Origin: Christensenellaceae bacterium | Lineage (GTDB): Bacteria; Bacillota; Clostridia; Christensenellales; UBA1242 | Direction of reading: 5' to 3' | DNA: 64,000 nucleotides | Assembly: GCA_031260975.1 (NCBI GenBank) | Contig: JAISKJ010000003.1 | Span: 436,065-500,064 of the forward strand | Shown: positions 4,800-58,748 of the stretch, piece by piece | Layout: every line of letters begins with the position of its first letter | Numbering within the stretch: position 1 is the first letter of the stretch | Position numbers and translations under genes: made by a program | The notes under the pieces: generated by a model | The model's input: only the letters and a program-made list of their open reading frames with translations | Database searches by the model: none | Told to the model about the DNA's origin: nothing

Positions 4800-4817
4800 T
4801 TGCATAATACTATGCAA
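4800..4817. repeat. palindromic repeat copy TTGCATAATACTATGCAA (perfect)
   Basis: 7-4-7 inverted repeat, identical to copies at 23025, 32782 and 32815; followed by ACTTTTTGTCGAAT flank shared with the 58685 locus. Confidence 0.9.
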
Positions 4818-5527: not shown

Positions 5528-5923
5528 ATGGAAAAGATAATGAACAAAGATTTTGCGCTGTCAGTGCTCAAAGGTGTGCTTGTCAGTTTGTGCATTACGC
5601 TGGTGCTTATATTGCTTTTTGCGGTAATTTTGAGGTTTGTTGATATGAATGATACCCTTGTCAGCACCGTAAATCAAATTATAAAGGTCGTAAGTGTATT
5701 TCTGGGTGTGATGGCGTCGCTTAAAAAGAATTCTGTAAAAGGGCTTTATAAAGGAATGATGATAGGAATTCTTTACACATTTTTGGCCTTTTTGGTATTT
5801 TCGCTGCTTGATGGAAGCTTTGCGTTTGGAGTAACTCTCATATTTGACTTGCTGTTTGCCTTGATTATCGGTGCGGTATGCGGACTTATCTGCGTCAACT
5901 TTAAGAAGAAAGAGAGAATATAA
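5528..5923 (+). CDS. small integral membrane protein (4 predicted TM helices; possibly TIGR04086/YrzE-like)
   Basis: 131 aa, four hydrophobic segments; family assignment from memory only. Confidence 0.7.
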   Translation: MEKIMNKDFALSVLKGVLVSLCITLVLILLFAVILRFVDMNDTLVSTVNQIIKVVSVFLGVMASLKKNSVKGLYKGMMIGILYTFLAFLVFSLLDGSFAFGVTLIFDLLFALIIGAVCGLICVNFKKKERI

Positions 5924-21699: not shown

Positions 21700-23010
21700 T
21701 TGACTGAAGAAAAACTAAACAAAACAGTTGGATTTGTGTCGCTTGGGTGTGACAAAAACAGGGTGGATACCGAAAGCATAATAACCACTCTTTATGCTAA
21801 TGGTTTTAAAACAACAGGAAACATAAATGATGCTCAGATAATAATAATAAACACCTGTGCTTTTTTAAAGTCTGCTCGTGATGAGGCTCTTGCCACTATG
21901 CTTGAAATGCTGGATTATAAAAAGACAAGTGCCGAAAAAATAATCGTGGCAGGCTGTCTTTGTCAAATGGATGATAAGCTCAAAGAAAAGTATCCTGAGA
22001 TTGACGCTTTTATTACGCCCAAGGATTATGGCGATATTGCAAAGATAATATACGGCCTTTATGGAAAGCCTTATAAAAACTCCAACGGTGTTCCGGATTA
22101 TCGCAAAATTACAACGCCCGGGCATTTTGCATATCTTAAGATTGCCGAAGGCTGTGACAATTCCTGTAGCTATTGCACAATTCCAAAAATTAAAGGACCC
22201 TATGTCAGCGAACCTATTGAAAGTCTTGTAAAAACGGCGACGATACTTGCTGAGCAGGGAGTGAAGGAGCTCATTTTGGTGGCGCAGGATACCACAAGGT
22301 ATGGGCTTGACTTATATAAAAAACAGACTATTGCTGAGCTTTTAAAAAAGCTTAGTGAAATTAATGGTATTGAATGGATACGCTTGCATTATTGTTATCC
22401 TGAGATGCTGACGCCGGCAATAATAAACGAAATTGCGACTAACCCCAAGGTTGTAAAGTATCTGGATATTCCGTTTCAGCATGTAAGCACAAAGGTACTT
22501 AAGTCCATGAACAGAGCAGGCAACGAGCAATCTGTAAAATTGATTGTTGAAATGCTGCGCTCTAAAATTCCGGAGATAGTGCTCAGGTCCACTTTTATTG
22601 TAGGCTTTCCGGGGGAAACTAATGAGGACTTTAAACTTCTTTTGAAGTTTTTGAAGGAATATAAATTGGATGCCGTCGGCTTCTTTGCATATTCAAATGA
22701 AGAGGGAACTCCATCTTTTGAATTTGATGGGCAACTTAGTCAAAAAGAAAAGCAAAAGAGGCTGGAGGCCGCTCAGAAGATTCAAAGCAAAATTGCCTTT
22801 GAGCTAAATCAAAAGTTTATAGGCGCCACCCAAAAGGTGTTGTGCGACGGATTTGATCAGGCGAATGGCCTATATTATGGGCGTAACTATGGTAGCTCAC
22901 CGGACGTTGATTTTGTTGTGTATATAAATGGGAAATGCAGTATAGGTGATTTTGTATCAGTAAAAATTACTGATGCAACAGACGAGTATTTGATAGGGGA
23001 AATTGCATAG
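21700..23010 (+). CDS. rimO: ribosomal protein S12 methylthiotransferase RimO
   Basis: 436 aa; UPF0004 N-domain, radical-SAM CDNSCSYC, TRAM C-domain; TTG start. Confidence 0.9.
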   Translation: MTEEKLNKTVGFVSLGCDKNRVDTESIITTLYANGFKTTGNINDAQIIIINTCAFLKSARDEALATMLEMLDYKKTSAEKIIVAGCLCQMDDKLKEKYPEIDAFITPKDYGDIAKIIYGLYGKPYKNSNGVPDYRKITTPGHFAYLKIAEGCDNSCSYCTIPKIKGPYVSEPIESLVKTATILAEQGVKELILVAQDTTRYGLDLYKKQTIAELLKKLSEINGIEWIRLHYCYPEMLTPAIINEIATNPKVVKYLDIPFQHVSTKVLKSMNRAGNEQSVKLIVEMLRSKIPEIVLRSTFIVGFPGETNEDFKLLLKFLKEYKLDAVGFFAYSNEEGTPSFEFDGQLSQKEKQKRLEAAQKIQSKIAFELNQKFIGATQKVLCDGFDQANGLYYGRNYGSSPDVDFVVYINGKCSIGDFVSVKITDATDEYLIGEIA

Positions 23011-23042
23011 TATTATGCAATAGTTTGCATAATACTATGCAA
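23003..23042. repeat. two perfect palindromic repeat copies in opposite orientation (TTGCATAGTATTATGCAA tagt TTGCATAATACTATGCAA)
   Basis: 23003-23020 and 23025-23042; first copy contains the rimO stop codon. Confidence 0.92.
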
Positions 23043-23069
23043 ACTTTAGTCACACAAAGGAGAGATATA

Positions 23070-29134: not shown

Positions 29135-31714
29135 ATGGCACTTTCACCAATGATGCAACAGTATATGGAGATAAAACAAAACTATAAGGATTGCTTGGTA
29201 TTTTGTAGGCTCGGAGATTTTTATGAGCTGTTTTTTGACGATGCTTTGATAGCCTCAAAAGAGTTGGAGCTGACTCTCACGGGGCGAAACTGCGGCCTTG
29301 AAGAAAAGGCTCCCATGTGCGGTGTTCCTTATCACGCTGCCGAAGGGTATATAGCCAAACTTATTGAAAAGGGCCATAAAGTAGCAATTCTTGAGCAGCT
29401 CAGCGAGCCCGCTCCAGGCAGGCTTGTTGACAGACAGGTGGTAAGGGTGATTACTGCAGGCACGGTGACCGATGCCGGCATGCTTGATGACAAAAAGAAT
29501 AATTATATTGCGAGTATATATTTAGGTGACAAGGGCGCGGGAATTGCTTATGCCGATGTTGCAACGGGTGAATTTTGCGTAAATTCCTATCAGGAAGAAT
29601 TTTTGACAAACCTCAATGACACTCTTACGCGCATAAGACCTGCTGAAATAATATGCTCAAAACGGGTGCTTGAACAAATTGCCGAGATTCCTTGCGTGAA
29701 GGCTAACATAATGCCTCGGTTTGAAGAATATCCCGAAGTTTTTTTTGACTACAAAAACGCAACCGAAATAATAAAGCGCCAGCTTAAGATTGCTACGCTC
29801 ACAGGTTTTGATTTTGCCAAGCTTGAATATGCAATTTGCGCCAGCGGAGCGCTTATAAATTATATATTAGAAACTCAAAAACGAGACCTTAATCACATAA
29901 ACCGCATTATATGCGAAAAGAATGATTCTTATCTATATCTCGATCCGGCTACAACTCGCAATCTTGAACTTGTTGAAACAATCAGGGAGCAAAAGAAAAA
30001 GGGCTCATTGCTGGGGCTTTTGGATAATACCAAAACCAATATGGGAGCAAGGCTTCTGCGCACATGGATACTTCAGCCTTTGCGTGACCCAGAGCAAATC
30101 AATCGCAGACTTGAGGCTGAGGAAGAACTTATTGGCGAGCATATTTTGTTTAATGACATAACGGCGAGTCTTTCAAAAGTTTCGGATATCAGCAGGATTG
30201 CTGGCAAAATATCCTTTAATACCGTTATGCCGCGCGATTTGATTTTGCTCAAAAATTCGATTAAAGAAGCAATGGAGCTTAGTGTACTTGTAAAAAATCT
30301 TAAGAGTGAGACTTTAAATGGGCTTATTTCGGATTTTTATAAACTTAAAGAAGTTTTTGAAGAGATTGAAAAGGCTATTGATGAGGAACCACCTTTGGTG
30401 CTTACCAACGGAGGTTATATAAAGAAGGGATTTAGCGGTGACCTTGACAATCTTCGTGCCACAACAACTGACGCTCAGCAATGGCTTGCGGCACTTGAGG
30501 CAACCGAGCGTGAGCAAACGGGTATCAAAAACATTAAGGTTGGATATACGCGTGTGTTTGGATATTACTTAGAGGTTCCCAAGTCTCAGCAGGATCAGGT
30601 GCCGTATAGATATCAACGCAAGCAAACGGTGGTAGGAGCTGAGCGATATGTCACCGAAGAACTCAAACAGATTGAAGAAAAAATAATGAACAGCGAAGAG
30701 CTTTCACTCAAGCTTGAACAGCAGTTATACAGCGAGCTTAAAGAGTTTTTAAAAACCGCTGTAACAGCTCTTCAAAAAACGGCAGGAGACATTGCTATGC
30801 TTGACTGTATATGTGCACTTGCTGAAACTGCAAAGACACGCGGCTTTATAAAGCCCGTTATAAACGGCGGCATAAAGGCAATCAATATAACAGATGGCAG
30901 GCATCCCGTGGTTGAAGCGTTGCTTAAAGATGAGCAGTTTGTTCCTAATGACTGCTATCTTGACTGTGATAAAAACAGAACTATGATAATTACCGGTCCT
31001 AATATGGCCGGCAAAAGTACCTATATGAGGCAGGTGGCACTCATTGTTCTGCTTGCTCACATGGGCAGTTTTGTTCCGGCAAAATCTGCTGAGATTAGCC
31101 TTACTGACCGAATTTTTACTAGGATTGGCGCCAGCGATGATCTGGCATATGGGCAGAGTACGTTTATGGTGGAGATGGTTGAGGTTTCAAACATTTTAAA
31201 CAATGCAACCAAAAACAGTCTGCTTGTTTTGGATGAGGTTGGCCGAGGTACTTCCACTTTTGACGGGCTCAGTATTGCGTGGGCGGTAATTGAACATGTA
31301 ACCAAAAACATAAAAGCCAAAACACTTTTTGCCACGCACTATCACGAGCTTACTGAACTTGAAGGGCAGCTGGAGGGAACGAATAATTACCGCGTGGCTA
31401 TTCAGGAGTTTAACAACAGCATAATTTTCCTTCACAAAATTGTAAGAGGAGGCACCAGCCGAAGCTTTGGAATTGAAGTGGCGTCCCTTGCCGGCATAGG
31501 TTCAAATATAATAGGGCGGGCTAAGCAGATTTTGCATACCCTTGAGCAAAATGACCTTGAGGGTAGCAGTAAGCTTGTAACACTTGAAAAATCCAAAGAA
31601 CCAAAGGGGGAACTAACAGGCAAGCTGAAAAACCTTGATATGAATACTGTTACTCCTTTGGTGGCGTTTGACATTTTAAAGGAACTAAGCGATAAAGCTA
31701 AAAGGAGTGACTAA
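29135..31714 (+). CDS. mutS: DNA mismatch repair protein MutS
   Basis: MALSPMMQQYMEIK start with AAGGAG SD; GPNMAGKST Walker A; ORF-track start 29081 lies inside element E1. Confidence 0.97.
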   Translation: MALSPMMQQYMEIKQNYKDCLVFCRLGDFYELFFDDALIASKELELTLTGRNCGLEEKAPMCGVPYHAAEGYIAKLIEKGHKVAILEQLSEPAPGRLVDRQVVRVITAGTVTDAGMLDDKKNNYIASIYLGDKGAGIAYADVATGEFCVNSYQEEFLTNLNDTLTRIRPAEIICSKRVLEQIAEIPCVKANIMPRFEEYPEVFFDYKNATEIIKRQLKIATLTGFDFAKLEYAICASGALINYILETQKRDLNHINRIICEKNDSYLYLDPATTRNLELVETIREQKKKGSLLGLLDNTKTNMGARLLRTWILQPLRDPEQINRRLEAEEELIGEHILFNDITASLSKVSDISRIAGKISFNTVMPRDLILLKNSIKEAMELSVLVKNLKSETLNGLISDFYKLKEVFEEIEKAIDEEPPLVLTNGGYIKKGFSGDLDNLRATTTDAQQWLAALEATEREQTGIKNIKVGYTRVFGYYLEVPKSQQDQVPYRYQRKQTVVGAERYVTEELKQIEEKIMNSEELSLKLEQQLYSELKEFLKTAVTALQKTAGDIAMLDCICALAETAKTRGFIKPVINGGIKAINITDGRHPVVEALLKDEQFVPNDCYLDCDKNRTMIITGPNMAGKSTYMRQVALIVLLAHMGSFVPAKSAEISLTDRIFTRIGASDDLAYGQSTFMVEMVEVSNILNNATKNSLLVLDEVGRGTSTFDGLSIAWAVIEHVTKNIKAKTLFATHYHELTELEGQLEGTNNYRVAIQEFNNSIIFLHKIVRGGTSRSFGIEVASLAGIGSNIIGRAKQILHTLEQNDLEGSSKLVTLEKSKEPKGELTGKLKNLDMNTVTPLVAFDILKELSDKAKRSD

Positions 31715-33558
31715 TGAAAATAAACATATTAGACAGTAGCATATACAATCGAATTGCAGCGGGTGAAGTTGTTGAACGTCCTCATTCGATTGTCAAGGAG
31801 CTTGTTGAAAATAGCGTTGATTCGGGGGCTGACAGTATAATAATAGAAGTTGTGGGCGGCGGTATGCGCTCTGTGAAAGTGACTGACAACGGCAGTGGAA
31901 TTGACTTTGATGACCTGACGGCCGCATTTTTGCCGCATGCAACCAGCAAAATCAAAACAACCGACGACCTGAATTCAATCGCTACGCTGGGTTTTAGAGG
32001 TGAAGCACTTGCCAGCATCGGCTCGGTAAGTGAAATTATGTTGAGCTCCAAAACTAAAGGAGCCACTACCGGCGGTGAGGTTGAAGTAAGAGGCGGAACC
32101 ATTTCTAAACCCCATCCTAAGGGGTGCCCCGAAGGGACGCATGTTGTGGTGAATAACTTATTTTTTAATACTCCGGCCCGAGCCAAGTTTTTAAAGTCAG
32201 CCAAAACTGAAGAAAGTTATATCACCAATCTGGTTGAGCGCACAATCTTAGCCCATCCGAATATCAGTTTTAAGTATATTGTCGACGGCAAAATTGTATA
32301 TCAGACAACGGGCAAAGGCCTTGAAGAGGCGATTTATGTGATTTATGGCAAGGAAACAACGGGAAACTTAATCAGTGTAGAATATAAAAATTCTAGCCTA
32401 ACCATATCCGGTTTTGTGGGCCGACCGACTTATACTAAGCCTAATCGTACTTATCAGACGCTGGTCATAAACGGCAGGTATGTTGTTGACAGTCTTGTTT
32501 CAACGTCGGTTTTCAATGCTTTTTCGAACTATATGATGAAGGGCAGGTTCCCGTTTTTTGTTCTTTTTATAAATATGCCCTATGAGGATGTTGATGTAAA
32601 TGTTCATCCAAACAAGCTGGCTGTAAGATTTGTAAACTCCAATGGTGTGTATGTTGCGGTAAGCAATGCTGTCAGCGGCGCGTTGCTTAACGCCAACAAT
32701 ATTGTTGACGCTGTGACAACTGCTGAAAACGAGCCGATTGTGCCGATGCCAAAGGTGACGGGCAGGAGTTTTGGGGAGAGTTTGCATAATACTATGCAAA
32801 CCTTGGATGAAAAATTGCATAATACTATGCAAACAATTGACACAAAGCCCGCAGTTTCAAGTCCGATACTGCCAAATATTCCTATTACGCCTGTGGCAAC
32901 GCTAAAGGATGATGGTGGAATATATTATCAGACACTTCAGAATTATGTCAAGGCAGCTGCTCAGCCTGAAGTTTCACTTGCCGAAGGAGTTGAGGATTTT
33001 AAGATAATCGGCACAGTATTTACCACCTACATAATTGTGGAGCACAAAGGTGAAGCATATTTTATTGACCAGCACGCAGCGCACGAGCGGCTTTTGTTTG
33101 ACAAATTTTCGGCCGAATTTGAAAAGAAACAGGTTAATATCCAACAGCTGTTTGTGCCGTATGTGTTGCGGATTAATAGTGTTGAGGATGTATTTTTAAA
33201 GGAACACCTTAATGATTTTGGTGAGCTGGGCTTTGAGGTTTCGGAGTTTGGCAATCTTTCATACAAGGTTTCAAGTGTGCCGCTTAGCCTCAGTCAAATA
33301 GACCTGAGTGCATATTTTGATGACAGTCTTAAAAACCTTAACAAGCTTGGCAGCAGCGTTGAAGTCAGGCACTTTTTGGCCACAAAGGCATGCAAGGCAG
33401 CGGTCAAAGCCGGGCATGATTTAAATGGCACTGAAATTGCAACGCTGCTTAAAGAAATCAGCAAATCGGGAACAACCTTGCTTTGTCCGCACGGTAGGCC
33501 TGTTTGCGTAAGGCTTAAAAAAACCGACGTTGACAAATGGTTTAAGAGGATTGTATGA
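31714..33558 (+). CDS. mutL: DNA mismatch repair protein MutL
   Basis: 614 aa; GHKL ATPase motifs (ELVENSVDSGA, DNGSGI), C-terminal dimerisation domain (FIDQHAAHER). Confidence 0.95.
   Translation: MKINILDSSIYNRIAAGEVVERPHSIVKELVENSVDSGADSIIIEVVGGGMRSVKVTDNGSGIDFDDLTAAFLPHATSKIKTTDDLNSIATLGFRGEALASIGSVSEIMLSSKTKGATTGGEVEVRGGTISKPHPKGCPEGTHVVVNNLFFNTPARAKFLKSAKTEESYITNLVERTILAHPNISFKYIVDGKIVYQTTGKGLEEAIYVIYGKETTGNLISVEYKNSSLTISGFVGRPTYTKPNRTYQTLVINGRYVVDSLVSTSVFNAFSNYMMKGRFPFFVLFINMPYEDVDVNVHPNKLAVRFVNSNGVYVAVSNAVSGALLNANNIVDAVTTAENEPIVPMPKVTGRSFGESLHNTMQTLDEKLHNTMQTIDTKPAVSSPILPNIPITPVATLKDDGGIYYQTLQNYVKAAAQPEVSLAEGVEDFKIIGTVFTTYIIVEHKGEAYFIDQHAAHERLLFDKFSAEFEKKQVNIQQLFVPYVLRINSVEDVFLKEHLNDFGELGFEVSEFGNLSYKVSSVPLSLSQIDLSAYFDDSLKNLNKLGSSVEVRHFLATKACKAAVKAGHDLNGTEIATLLKEISKSGTTLLCPHGRPVCVRLKKTDVDKWFKRIV
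32782..32832. repeat. two perfect direct copies of the palindromic repeat, in frame inside mutL
   Basis: TTGCATAATACTATGCAAAC at 32782-32801 and 32815-32834, period 33 nt, translated LHNTMQT twice. Confidence 0.92.
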
Positions 33559-37544: not shown

Positions 37545-37573
37545 TTGACATTTTTGGCAGGGAATATTATAAT
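37545..37573 (+). promoter_or_regulatory. consensus sigma-A promoter of serS (TTGACA-17-TATAAT)
   Basis: -35 at 37545-50, -10 at 37568-73. Confidence 0.75.
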
Positions 37574-37578
37574 ATAAA

Positions 37579-37596
37579 TTGCATAATGCTGTGCAA
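37579..37596. repeat. palindromic repeat copy, 2 mismatches (TTGCATAATGCTGTGCAA)
   Basis: Starts about 6 nt after the serS -10 box, at the predicted transcript 5' end. Confidence 0.8.
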
Positions 37597-37611
37597 ACTT
37601 TTGGAGGAAAA

Positions 37612-39036: not shown

Positions 39037-39939
39037 TTGAAAAAACAAAGAATTGAACAATTTGCAACAGAAGTTAATGGCGATACTGCCAAAGAAAATT
39101 ATAAAATTGCACTTAATGTAATCATAGAGGCGCTTGAGGGGCTAACCGGTAAGGTGTCTACACTGACGCCCGAGGAAGTGCGTGTTTTTCCGATGGGTGA
39201 GCTCACCAACGGCACCTTTGTTGACACAAACGATGAAATTGAAATAGCTCTTGTCACCAGCAATCCTCAAATGGCGTTTACAAATTCCGCCTACATAAGA
39301 CTTATGTCTGAGATTAAAAAACAGAAAGACCGCGACGCAGTCAGTTCAGACAACACTACACATCAAATCATACAGCTTTTGTTTGATGAATTTATTAAAT
39401 TGTTTTCGGCTGACACTACAATCATTATAACTCAACAAGGAATAAAAATATTATCTAACAAGGAGCTTGGCTTTAAAATTATGTTACGCCTCGGCACGTA
39501 TAATGCCTATGACACAAATTTTGTGCTGTCACTGTGGAATCCTGTGCGAAAAACAACTGAAAATCTTGATATTTTCGGCTATGCTGAAGCTATGAAAAAG
39601 AAAGACGATGATACAGACGGCAACTTTAACAAAATTGTAAGAATTTTTAAAAACTTCCGTAAAGCTGTTGTGGCCAATAAATGGTTCGGCAGTTCATTTG
39701 CAAACAAATATCTGGTTGAGATGGTAGTATACAACATACCAAACTCATTGCTTAAAGGCAGTGATGTATATAAGGTTTATGTCAAAAGTATAAATTATTT
39801 ACTGAATTGTCCGCTGAGTAGTTTTAAATCTTTTAACGGCGGGCAGCTTAGTAGTTTTCCGATAGCAGGCGCAGATCAATATCACATAAAAACTTTCCTG
39901 AGCAGCTGCAGCAGATTGCTGGCGCTCAAGGATGTATAA
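39037..39939 (+). CDS. hypothetical protein, possibly a divergent Pol-beta-fold nucleotidyltransferase (CD-NTase/SMODS-like layout)
   Basis: 300 aa, TTG start with AAAAGGAG SD; MGELTNGTFVDTNDEIEIALV resembles hG[GS]x9-13DhDh with GE and EIE substitutions; later FNKIVRIFKNFRK...YLVEMVVYNIP helices. Confidence 0.35.
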   Translation: MKKQRIEQFATEVNGDTAKENYKIALNVIIEALEGLTGKVSTLTPEEVRVFPMGELTNGTFVDTNDEIEIALVTSNPQMAFTNSAYIRLMSEIKKQKDRDAVSSDNTTHQIIQLLFDEFIKLFSADTTIIITQQGIKILSNKELGFKIMLRLGTYNAYDTNFVLSLWNPVRKTTENLDIFGYAEAMKKKDDDTDGNFNKIVRIFKNFRKAVVANKWFGSSFANKYLVEMVVYNIPNSLLKGSDVYKVYVKSINYLLNCPLSSFKSFNGGQLSSFPIAGADQYHIKTFLSSCSRLLALKDV

Positions 39940-40321: not shown

Positions 40322-41035
40322 TCACCTATAAATCCCAAGCAGAAAGTTGTTGCGTTTGAGTGTGAGACGTGCCTGCTTCCAGCCTGGCATGAGGCGCTCA
40401 AGCACTGCATAAAACTTTTGCGAATGGTTCATCTCATATGTGTGGCTAAGCTCATGCAGAATTACATAATCAATGACATTGTGCGGCAGCATTACAAGCC
40501 GCCAATTTAATTTGATATTCTTATTTGTATCACAACTACCCCATTTTGCTTTAAAGTCGCCGATTTTCAGGCTTTTATAACCTATCCCGTGCGTCTTCCC
40601 AAGCGTCTCAAGCCGTTTGGTAAGTATTTCCGCCCCTAGTGCCCTTTGCCATTTCAATAAGTGTTTTATGTATGAGCCTTCTATATAATATTTATTTGGC
40701 ACGATTACCTGATTTTTTTCAATTGTTATTGTCTTTGTGTCGCCGGCGGTGATGTCATAAAGCGTTCCGCACACTGAAATTTGTTTAAAGTTGATTATGG
40801 TTTGATGGTCAATATTCACCTGTGCTATCTGCTGCATCTTTTTTTCAATCCATTTGGCTTTTTGATTTATGATTTCACCAAGCCGTTGAGTATTCATTTT
40901 TATGGGTGCAAAAACCACCAGCTTTCCGTGGGTGTCTATGGTTATCTTAACGCTTCTGCGACGCTCACGCAGAATGTCGGCGATATCTATTAAGTTTTGC
41001 ATAGTATTATTCAAACTTTGCATAGTATTATTCAA
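40322..41035 (-). CDS. YgjP-like/DUF45 family metal-dependent hydrolase (HExxH)
   Basis: HELSHTYEMNHSQKFY zinc motif, RRSVKITIDTHGKLVVFAP N-region; start ambiguous (TTG 41035, ATG 41023 or ATG 41002), all inside repeat copies. Confidence 0.8.
   Translation of the reverse strand: MNNTMQSLNNTMQNLIDIADILRERRRSVKITIDTHGKLVVFAPIKMNTQRLGEIINQKAKWIEKKMQQIAQVNIDHQTIINFKQISVCGTLYDITAGDTKTITIEKNQVIVPNKYYIEGSYIKHLLKWQRALGAEILTKRLETLGKTHGIGYKSLKIGDFKAKWGSCDTNKNIKLNWRLVMLPHNVIDYVILHELSHTYEMNHSQKFYAVLERLMPGWKQARLTLKRNNFLLGIYR
40997..41035. repeat. two direct palindromic repeat copies, 1 mismatch each (TTGCATAGTATTATTCAA), period 21 nt
   Basis: 40997-41014 and 41018-41035; encode NNTMQ twice on the minus strand. 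Confidence 0.85.
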
Positions 41036-41084
41036 AAGCCTCTACTTAGTCCATTATAGCATAAATTCAGACAAAAAGCATATT

Positions 41085-41096
41085 TTGCATAGTATT
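41085..41096. repeat. half copy of the palindromic repeat (TTGCATAGTATT)
   Basis: Ends 3 nt before the -35 box of the PadR-like gene promoter. Confidence 0.6.
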
Positions 41097-41099
41097 TTA

Positions 41100-41128
41100 T
41101 TGACTTTTTTGCCTTTTTTTTGTATAAT
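41100..41128 (+). promoter_or_regulatory. consensus promoter of PadR-like gene (TTGACT-17-TATAAT, TG-extended)
   Basis: -35 at 41100-05, -10 at 41123-28; SD AAGAGGG then ATG 41147. Confidence 0.7.
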
Positions 41129-58696: not shown

Positions 58697-58746
58697 TTGC
58701 ATAATCTTTGCATAGTATTATGCAAAAGTTTGCACAGTACTATGCA
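58697..58746. repeat. palindromic repeat cluster: half copy plus one perfect plus one 2-mismatch copy
   Basis: TTGCATAAT 58697-705; TTGCATAGTATTATGCAA 58708-25; TTGCACAGTACTATGCAA 58729-46; preceded by ATTCGACAAAAA 58685-96. Confidence 0.9.
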
Positions 58747-58748
58747 AT

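Follow-up and report, generated by a model that had tools for sequence, protein, structure and literature searches.

We analyzed a 64,000-nt stretch of contig JAISKJ010000003.1 (positions 436,065–500,064) from a Christensenellaceae bacterium, hereafter the window, to whose positions all coordinates below refer. The subject is a short repeated DNA word found at the 5′ end of a gene for a DUF45 zinc metallopeptidase and beside the promoter of the divergently transcribed gene for a PadR-like regulator. Overall, these data are best explained, with a probability of about 0.55, by an operator word, probably read by a PadR protein, that was absorbed into the DUF45 open reading frame (ORF) and came to supply its start codon. 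If so, a regulatory DNA site has been taken up by the gene under its control, the ATG of the word has replaced the ancestral start, apparently more than once in the clade, and operator occupancy and translation initiation now compete for the same bases. We infer protein binding, the identity of the binder, the direction of regulation, and which of four candidate starts is used from the sequence and its conservation.

A repeated word at the start of the DUF45 gene

Tandem Repeats Finder places the repeat at 40996–41036 (period 21, 2.0 copies, 100% matches, score 82). Inside every 21-nt unit lies an 18-bp near-palindrome, TTGCATAGTATTATtCAA, which has one mismatch relative to TTGCATA-N4-TATGCAA and is built on the word TACTATGCAA(AC). 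The clade-wide form of this word is the 12-nt (G)TACTATGCAAAC, and its ideal form is a 22-bp palindrome, GTTTGCATAGTACTATGCAAAC. The 10-mer TACTATGCAA occurs in 10 exact copies in the window, compared to 0.17 ± 0.40 in shuffled sequences (0/100 shuffles reached 10). An earlier note, made from the letters of this DNA, had described two direct copies with a 21-nt period at the 5′ end of the DUF45 ORF, a half copy at 41085–41096 located three nt before the −35 box of the PadR-like gene, and a TTGACT-17-TATAAT promoter for the latter gene. The two copies have the coordinates and sequence it described, far beyond chance expectation, the half copy (TTGCATAGTATT) does end 3 nt before TTGACT (41100–41105), and the promoter was recovered by a promoter scan (Table 1). 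The near-palindrome within each unit goes beyond that description, as do the perfect palindrome copies found elsewhere in the window (at 4800, 23003, 23025, 32782, 32815, and 58708), and one-mismatch copies occur at 37579 and 58730. An asymmetric centre, AATAC, is common to 8/8 18-mers of the window, and the copies are near-perfect rather than graded.

To judge from our searches, the word is previously undescribed in the literature and is found in a Christensenellaceae-related group of gut Clostridia. When the literature was searched for the word as a string, all matches were primers or otherwise unrelated, and nothing resembling the word came up. Exact scans with the 18-mer of genome and metagenome collections (the source genome is in neither) yielded single matches only, most of them at chance level and a few of them relatives carrying small arrays, and no match to the perfect palindrome was obtained in the viral contigs scanned.

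The DUF45 ORF matches PF01863 along the entire profile (E 4.9e-50, profile positions 1–207 of 207, residues 27–229), and H194, E195, and H198 are invariant in the protein alignment; a full-length match with an HExxH motif places it in the YgjP-like/DUF45 family. Its minus-strand opening, MNNTMQSLNNTMQNLIDIAD, includes four in-frame start candidates, two TTG and two ATG, all of them within the repeats (Table 1). The earlier note had rightly located every candidate start there but had counted three. The next in-frame start-type codon after the repeats is a GTG at about codon 39, within the conserved core, and a DNA alignment of four close species contains no ATG, GTG, or TTG from the repeats to that core. 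DUF45 homologues at ≤45% identity start M-I-x-x-A-x-I-I-R, and the aligned position here is L14 (TTA): on this alignment, the ancestral DUF45 start has been lost in the window lineage. With the ancestral start gone and the word brought into frame, DUF45 translation has to begin inside the repeats, a conclusion that we regard as very probable.

Among the 11 loci we tabulated, i.e., the window and ten relatives (L042, L090, L091, L043, L093, L096, L094, L083, L087, and L089), the ATG of the word is the annotated DUF45 start in six lineages (window, L042, L090, L091, L043, and L093). In four others (L096, L094, L083, and L087), the word lies 14–34 nt upstream and out of frame, and the ancestral start is used with a normal Shine-Dalgarno sequence before it. 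The position of L14, the lack of an alternative start, and the annotation of the word's ATG in six lineages all support the proposal of the earlier note that the repeat had been recruited as coding sequence or a start codon. The three closest relatives (76–78% identity) start MQ(S/T)xxxxMQ(N/S), within the first repeat copy, one relative at 53% identity starts MQTKQT, and L090 has an in-frame 6-nt insertion following copy 2. The public protein P0001 (226 aa), identical to the DUF45 protein of the window, is annotated from M12, i.e., from ATG 41002–41000. We attribute the disagreement of gene callers on this start (226 aa in the window vs. 233–235 aa in close relatives) to the location of the starts within the repeats. 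Pairs of copies are spaced by 21 nt in the DUF45 ORF and 33 nt in mutL, both multiples of three, and by 22 nt in two intergenic pairs, a pattern that fits a frame constraint on the in-gene periods, with only two cases of each. The extended −10 TGcTATAAT is the probable −10 element of the DUF45 promoter, which a two-hexamer scan missed because of its weak −35 region.

Table 1. Features of the DUF45/PadR-like locus and copies of the word elsewhere in the window
Feature	Position	Strand	Details
DUF45/YgjP-like zinc metallopeptidase ORF	40322–41035	−	237 residues; HExxH motif is HELSH
Copy 1 of the 18-bp near-palindrome	41018–41035	−	TTGAATAATACTATGCAA; holds candidate starts TTG 41035–41033 and ATG 41023–41021
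Copy 2 of the 18-bp near-palindrome	40997–41014	−	Holds candidate starts TTG 41014–41012 and ATG 41002–41000
Site 1, single 12-mer	41083–41094	−	TACTATGCAAAA; 5 nt from PadR −35 box, just upstream of DUF45 −35 position
Predicted DUF45 promoter, extended −10 TGcTATAAT	41053–41061	−	−35 region poor; TTTATGCTATA invariant in four species
Shine-Dalgarno-like purine run AGAGG	41039–41043	−	Purine run kept there in four species
Promoter of PadR-like gene, TTGACT-17-TATAAT	41100–41128	+	11/12 matches to sigma-70 consensus
PadR-like gene, 588 aa	41147–42913	+	LmrR-like winged helix, acidic linker, four C-terminal hydrophobic helices
Single perfect copy	4800–4817	+	17 nt past ruvB stop codon, upstream of yajC
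Two perfect copies in inverted orientation, 22 nt apart	23003–23042		Contains rimO-like stop; just upstream of cinA-recA
Two perfect copies, 33 nt apart	32782–32832	+	In frame in mutL linker (LHNTMQT twice); mutL at 31714–33558
Degenerate copy in serS leader	37579–37596	+	TTGCATAATGCTGTGCAA; between TTGACA-17-TATAAT and Shine-Dalgarno sequence
About 2.5 copies	58697–58747		Directly past thiI stop codon, upstream of pyrophosphatase gene

Conservation of the divergent locus and the candidate reader

The divergent arrangement of DUF45 and the PadR-ABC genes is kept in every relative fetched (10 genomes). Nine of these ten, with DUF45 proteins 39–78% identical to that of the window, keep one copy of the word beside the PadR −35 box as well as one or two more in the interval from the DUF45 −10 box to the coding core. 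The distance from the −35 box is 4–6 nt, in the same orientation, in eight relatives, and the copy is inverted and 3 nt away in L043. At the five loci with DUF45 39–46% identical to the window's (L083, L087, L093, L094, and L096), an exact TACTATGCAA(A/C)(A/C) lies 4–6 nt from the PadR −35 box and a second copy of the word lies between the DUF45 −10 box and its start; in L083, L087, L094, and L096, the units at this home locus are single non-palindromic 12-mers. Across genomes whose proteins are only about 40–65% identical, the word remains letter-perfect.

The DNA alignment of four close species was used for home-locus invariance and for codon-position counts. Three blocks are invariant or nearly so: the intergenic GCAAAAAAGTCAATAAAATACTATGCAAAAT, consisting of the PadR −35 box and the half copy, the intergenic TTTATGCTATA, i.e., the extended −10 for DUF45, and copy 1, with one T/C change only. 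Site 1 falls in a 31-nt block without change. Third positions vary at 29/35 of the codons downstream of the repeats vs. 2/10 of the repeat-derived codons, in which second positions vary most (5/10). These codon-position patterns show that the apparent constraint on the repeats acts on the DNA and not on the peptide.

The N-terminal domain of the PadR-like protein matches PF03551 (E 5.9e-18) and LmrR chains (E 1e-19 over residues 13–108), and is related to C. difficile cdPadR1 (5dym, E 4e-14). It has the winged helix-turn-helix followed by a C-terminal dimerisation helix of the PadR family, and is here extended by an acidic linker (about 330 residues, net charge −30) and by four hydrophobic helices. 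Next in order are genes for an ATP-binding cassette (ABC) ATPase and an ABC-2 permease. With about 65% identity, this domain is as conserved as SerS and Xer, compared to only 37–46% for DUF45, LexA, CD_NTase_C, and the ABC permease. A homologue search with the N-domain mostly returned 109-aa soluble PadR proteins, and not intermediate membrane-anchored ones.

The recognition helix of this domain, KQPSLYSSLRRM, is identical in 8/8 motif-bearing genomes examined for it, L094 and L096 among them. In L089, no copy of the word is present in 10 kb, for which the syntenic stretch of L087 holds seven, and the PadR N-domain has diverged (about 24–31% identity, helix KRSALSKVLSDL). The identities to the window in L089 vs. 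L087 are 40 vs. 42% for DUF45, 61 vs. 65% for Xer, 40 vs. 41% for LexA, and 40 vs. 37% for CD_NTase_C. The word thus tracks the PadR recognition helix, which favors the PadR-like protein over LexA or the Xer-like integrase as its reader. As a side observation, a resemblance to the word is seen in the very DNA coding for the recognition helix (S-L-Y-S-S), with one mismatch in L083 (GTTTGTATAGTA, position 5709), two overlapping 2-mismatch matches in L093 (13266–13289), and a weaker similarity in the window; this likeness is probably a coincidence.

PadR-family proteins often bind their own promoters, e.g., LmrR and cdPadR1 (PMC5050560). The boxes bound by cdPadR1 are of the form GTACTAT..., including AGAGTACTATGTATT..., and several of about 200 genomic matches to its predicted motif were bound in vitro (PMC5050560); AphA, another member of the family, binds ATATGCA-N6-TGCATAT (PMC3440409). 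Like the PadR-s2 systems LmrR/lmrCD of L. lactis, cdPadR1 of C. difficile, and the AphA box of Vibrio, the locus studied here has an LmrR-like winged helix and C-terminal dimerisation helix encoded before ABC genes, and a site in the regulator's own promoter region, as expected of a PadR autoregulatory operator. The half-site letters overlap as well, since (G)TACTATGCAAAC contains both GTACTATG, seen in the cdPadR1 boxes, and TATGCA, the AphA half-site. The palindromic form of the word has its TGCA cores 12 bp apart. Unlike in these systems, the exact ATGT-N8-ACAT or TACT-N11-12-AGTA consensus is absent from the arrangement found here, where the 12-mers are instead single, in direct tandem (21, 22, or 33 nt), or part of an 18–22-bp palindrome. 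The long acidic linker and four transmembrane helices of the regulator are also unlike these systems, as are near-perfect copies lying inside coding sequences.

The copies probably regulate the divergent DUF45/PadR-like pair, and we favor, with slightly less assurance, the PadR-like protein as the reader of the word. Specifically, the copies at this locus would act as operator sites for both divergent genes: one copy, 5 nt upstream of the PadR −35 box, would be located at the upstream edge of the DUF45 promoter, and the two tandem copies would sit just downstream of the DUF45 transcription start. Site 1 is outside both predicted transcripts, upstream of both promoters. Two sites so placed, bracketing the DUF45 promoter and abutting the PadR promoter, are arranged as is usual for repressors of divergent pairs. 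The most likely reader would be the neighbouring membrane-anchored PadR-like protein, bound as a winged-helix dimer, which may act on its own padR-ABC transporter operon as an autoregulator and on DUF45 as a repressor bracketing the promoter of that gene. The downstream site carries an ATG directly before DUF45, and remodelling of the 5′ end would have removed the ancestral start and put the word in frame. Such a start capture would add a short N-terminal tail to DUF45, probably unselected as a peptide. A shared operator for the divergent pair, which the earlier note had set against start recruitment as an alternative, agrees with the fixed positions relative to both promoters in nine lineages, the DNA-level constraint, and the likeness to PadR half-sites; both of its readings thus find support, but they hold together instead of excluding each other.

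Objections and rival explanations

Several observations weigh against the favored explanation. PadR operators are typically ATGT-N8-ACAT inverted repeats, whereas the home-locus sites are degenerate palindromes or single 12-mers, and the AGAGG run is at an unfavorable distance from every candidate start (3 nt ahead of TTG 41035, 15 nt ahead of ATG 41023). The co-occurrence of the word and the PadR helix rests on one negative genome, L089, and binding and regulation by the PadR-like protein are conclusions drawn from sequence. For a protein with four transmembrane helices, access to many sites on the chromosome would be limited. Finally, the repeat is not a local invention and belongs to a clade-wide dispersed family, which lay outside the interpretation given in the earlier note. 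Its copies are all-or-none near-perfect, unlike those of a graded regulon, and they occur where a local repressor has no obvious business, including the mutL linker with its fixed 33-nt spacing, the SerS catalytic core, the coding sequences of DegV and CD_NTase_C, and the 3′ ends of ruvB, thiI, lexA, and punA.

This wider distribution was surveyed in the 64-kb window and about 150 kb of relatives' DNA. L083 holds 7 exact 10-mers in 12.7 kb, and L087 likewise. The MutL linker is disordered, the pair of copies and its 33-nt spacing are kept in L092 and L093, and the MutL linkers of relatives contain xxTMQ peptides down to about 53% identity. Relatives also carry the word in coding sequence in a second frame (VLCK), i.e., in the SerS core, DegV, and CD_NTase_C, in the last case at the same codon position in L087 and L093. 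Arrays are found at orthologous 3′ ends, for punA in three genomes and for lexA in three genomes, with separate terminators adjoining. The role of the copies beyond the DUF45 locus is unexplained by the operator reading. Near-perfect copies within genes and at 3′ ends are less like an ordinary regulon than like uptake sequences or chromosome-organising sites, while conservation of position over deep divergence and the tie to the PadR helix speak against an uptake or organiser function.

One may ask whether the word is a genome-wide signal for other machinery, kept by drive or by architecture-level selection, in the manner of the DNA uptake sequences (DUS) of Neisseria, the uptake signal sequences (USS) of Pasteurellaceae such as Haemophilus, or chromosome-organising sites, so that the DUF45 copies would be three of hundreds with no specific regulatory role. 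We consider this unlikely, even though it would account for near-perfect copies with a shared AATAC centre, for coding copies in both the TMQ and VLCK frames, one of them in the conserved SerS core, and for copies in stretches of protein that are poorly conserved (the mutL linker and the DUF45 N-terminus), beside separate terminators at 3′ ends, and in inverted pairs. The density of about one locus per 3–15 kb and the location of several copies beside the genome-maintenance genes ruvB, cinA-recA, mutL, and lexA also fit this explanation. Similarly, DUS and USS are short exact words that a family-level clade has in common; they occur in those parts of coding sequences where they are tolerated by the protein, at gene ends, and in inverted pairs, several of them beside DNA-repair genes. 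A genome holds hundreds to thousands of these sequences, in either orientation and at about one per kb; unlike them, the word has a density apparently below about 1 per kb in the DNA surveyed, with no uptake system identified. It further differs in its tie to one regulator gene and recognition helix, with which its presence varies, and in the depth to which position and spacing are kept (4–6 nt from the PadR −35 box across nine lineages, 33 nt in mutL across three), which would be unexpected for drive-maintained uptake sequences. Apart from cinA, the window showed no competence genes, and to our knowledge no uptake sequence is known in this phylum, which counts against an uptake function.

Chromosome-organising sites offer a second set of comparisons. 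The Noc-binding sites (NBS), MatP matS, ParB parS, and the XerD sites (XDS) are, like the word, near-perfect 13–22-bp palindromes scattered regardless of gene boundaries, and the window looks terminus-proximal. Noc is moreover membrane-associated, as is the candidate PadR-like reader. The word is nonetheless unrelated in sequence to parS, NBS, and matS, differs in geometry from dif and XDS, and is documented over the 64 kb of the window and about 150 kb of relatives' DNA. It is conceivable, if quite improbable, that the word is recognized by the PadR-like protein at hundreds of near-perfect sites, those inside genes such as mutL with their fixed spacing included, that this protein, like Noc or MatP, tethers the chromosome to the membrane or organises the nucleoid and is not an ordinary operon repressor, that the divergent SprT/WLM-like DUF45 protease cuts the acidic linker and thereby releases the DNA, and that the word at the DUF45 start closes a feedback loop. 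Protease-repressor pairs such as ImmA/ImmR and IrrE/DdrO provide a partial parallel, in that a zinc metallopeptidase gene is paired with a gene for a DNA-binding repressor and a palindromic motif recurs in the control region they share and elsewhere, including at some DNA-repair genes. Unlike in these pairs, the peptidase here is DUF45/YgjP-like and not COG2856, the regulator is a membrane-anchored PadR-type and not an XRE-type protein, and the wider sites (punA, spoIIIAB, thiI, and degV) do not form a repair regulon; cleavage of the PadR-like regulator by DUF45 is pure speculation.

A more specific proposal, which we consider very unlikely, is that the copies are XerD-type recombinase sites around the replication terminus, like the B. 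subtilis XDS that unload SMC (structural maintenance of chromosomes) complexes (for XDS sites, see PMC11840125). Between the arm CTATGCAAACT and the XerD arm of B. subtilis dif, TTATGTAAACT, 9/11 positions agree (dif from PMC3025954), a terminus-like flip in GC skew and converging gene orientation are seen near 48–50 kb of the window, and a Xer-like integrase gene lies within the conserved neighbourhood. The geometry does not agree, as the arms are 2 bp apart (taken as 11-bp) or 6 bp apart (taken as 9-bp), vs. a 6-bp core between two 11-bp arms in dif, where an arm of the form TTATGTnAAnT is expected, and two of the most conserved dif positions differ. No site with the 28-bp dif layout was found in the window, where the best match to B. 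subtilis dif is 19/28, and L089 encodes a Xer-like protein at 61% identity without any copies of the word. Since the word was compared with many known motifs, one partial match is weak evidence.

The dispersed and palindromic nature of the element, often intergenic or at 3′ ends and sometimes in frame inside genes, would also suit a small selfish repeat, i.e., one similar to repetitive extragenic palindromic (REP) sequences, miniature inverted-repeat transposable elements (MITEs), or Rickettsia palindromic elements (RPEs), inserted by chance at the DUF45 5′ end and without function. We deem this highly improbable: orthologous positions are kept at 40–60% protein identity, where neutral DNA would be saturated, the conserved home-locus units in L083, L087, L094, and L096 are single non-palindromic 12-mers, the element is only 12–22 bp long, and no transposase or gene similar to REP-associated tyrosine transposases was seen in the window. 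Copies in coding sequences, non-palindromic units, and persistence at about 40% protein identity likewise separate it from REP sequences, bacterial interspersed mosaic elements, and MITEs. As in the Rickettsia elements, the repeat is tolerated in frame (mutL linker, DUF45 N-terminus), but it is 18–22 bp vs. about 100–150 bp, is kept in position over deep divergence, and is also conserved as half-units. Just as improbable is a role of the element as RNA (a leader hairpin or translational control) or as an (L/M)NNTMQ N-terminal peptide repeat. The downstream copies are transcribed and overlap start codons, the word is mostly on the sense strand of the local gene, and after lexA, L043 carries a compensatory variant, GTTTGCACAGTATCGTGCAAAC, with a T-run behind it. 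Against this, the DUF45 leader has no unusual RNA structure (−5.2 kcal/mol, z = +0.52, not significant), site 1 falls upstream of both promoters, other genes carry the word in different reading frames, it is untranslated in four lineages, and the codon-position pattern is the opposite of that expected under peptide selection.

Other candidate functions were rejected. An SOS box or DNA-repair regulon, suggested by the ruvB, cinA-recA, mutL, and lexA neighbours and by the lack of GAAC-N4-GTTC in the window, is ruled out by arrays of the relatives at punA, spoIIIAB, degV, and RNase H; as a LexA box, the word is unrelated to GAAC-N4-GTTC, and LexA does not co-vary with it, being equally conserved in the motif-free L089. 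Intrinsic terminators are ruled out as well, with separate G+C-rich terminators adjoining the copies in L010, L018, and L087 and most copies lacking a T-run. Readings as sigma-54, sporulation-sigma, or ordinary −35/−10 elements were dropped, as the spacings do not fit. The role of the word genome-wide is of greater interest, and its reader, once known, would tell apart a very unusual PadR regulon, a first sequence of the uptake type for this phylum, and a novel system of chromosome organisation.

Other observations in the window and in relatives

A number of observations concern the surroundings of individual copies. The stop codon TAG of the rimO-like gene (23008–23010) lies inside a palindrome copy, and the 59-nt spacer between this gene and cinA-recA (window 23003–23069) consists of two copies and a Shine-Dalgarno sequence. 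In the serS leader (37546–37611), Rfam finds no T-box, and the copy present there is absent from the serS leaders of L087 and L093; across the window, Rfam detected only a tRNA. Between serS and DUF45 lies a conserved 300-aa gene (39037–39939) without a Pfam match in the window scan, homologues of which carry a precomputed PF26305 (CD_NTase_C) in relatives. No perfect GAAC-N4-GTTC site occurs in the 64 kb, though recA, lexA, ruvCAB, and mutSL are present, and one-mismatch matches number 10 vs. 17.8 expected.

Immediately downstream of DUF45 in L043 (6316–11286) is a provirus similar to microviruses, about 4.95 kb long (Phage_F, Chlamy_scaf, REP_ORF2-G2P), with exact 18-bp direct repeats, ATAATCTATTCGCAAAAG, on either side; these were considered as word-like attachment (att) sites and ruled out, the repeats being unrelated to the word. 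Gene order beside DUF45 also varies. In L083, the genes for RNase H, DegV, RNase Y, and ThiI directly adjoin DUF45, and in the window they are located 8–18 kb away, on the far side of the PadR-ABC-leuS block, suggesting rearrangements with a breakpoint at the DUF45 locus, as often seen around the terminus. The GC skew of the window changes from about +0.13 (1–48 kb) to about −0.09 (48–64 kb), which, together with the convergence of gene orientation near 48–50 kb, is a replication terminus signature.

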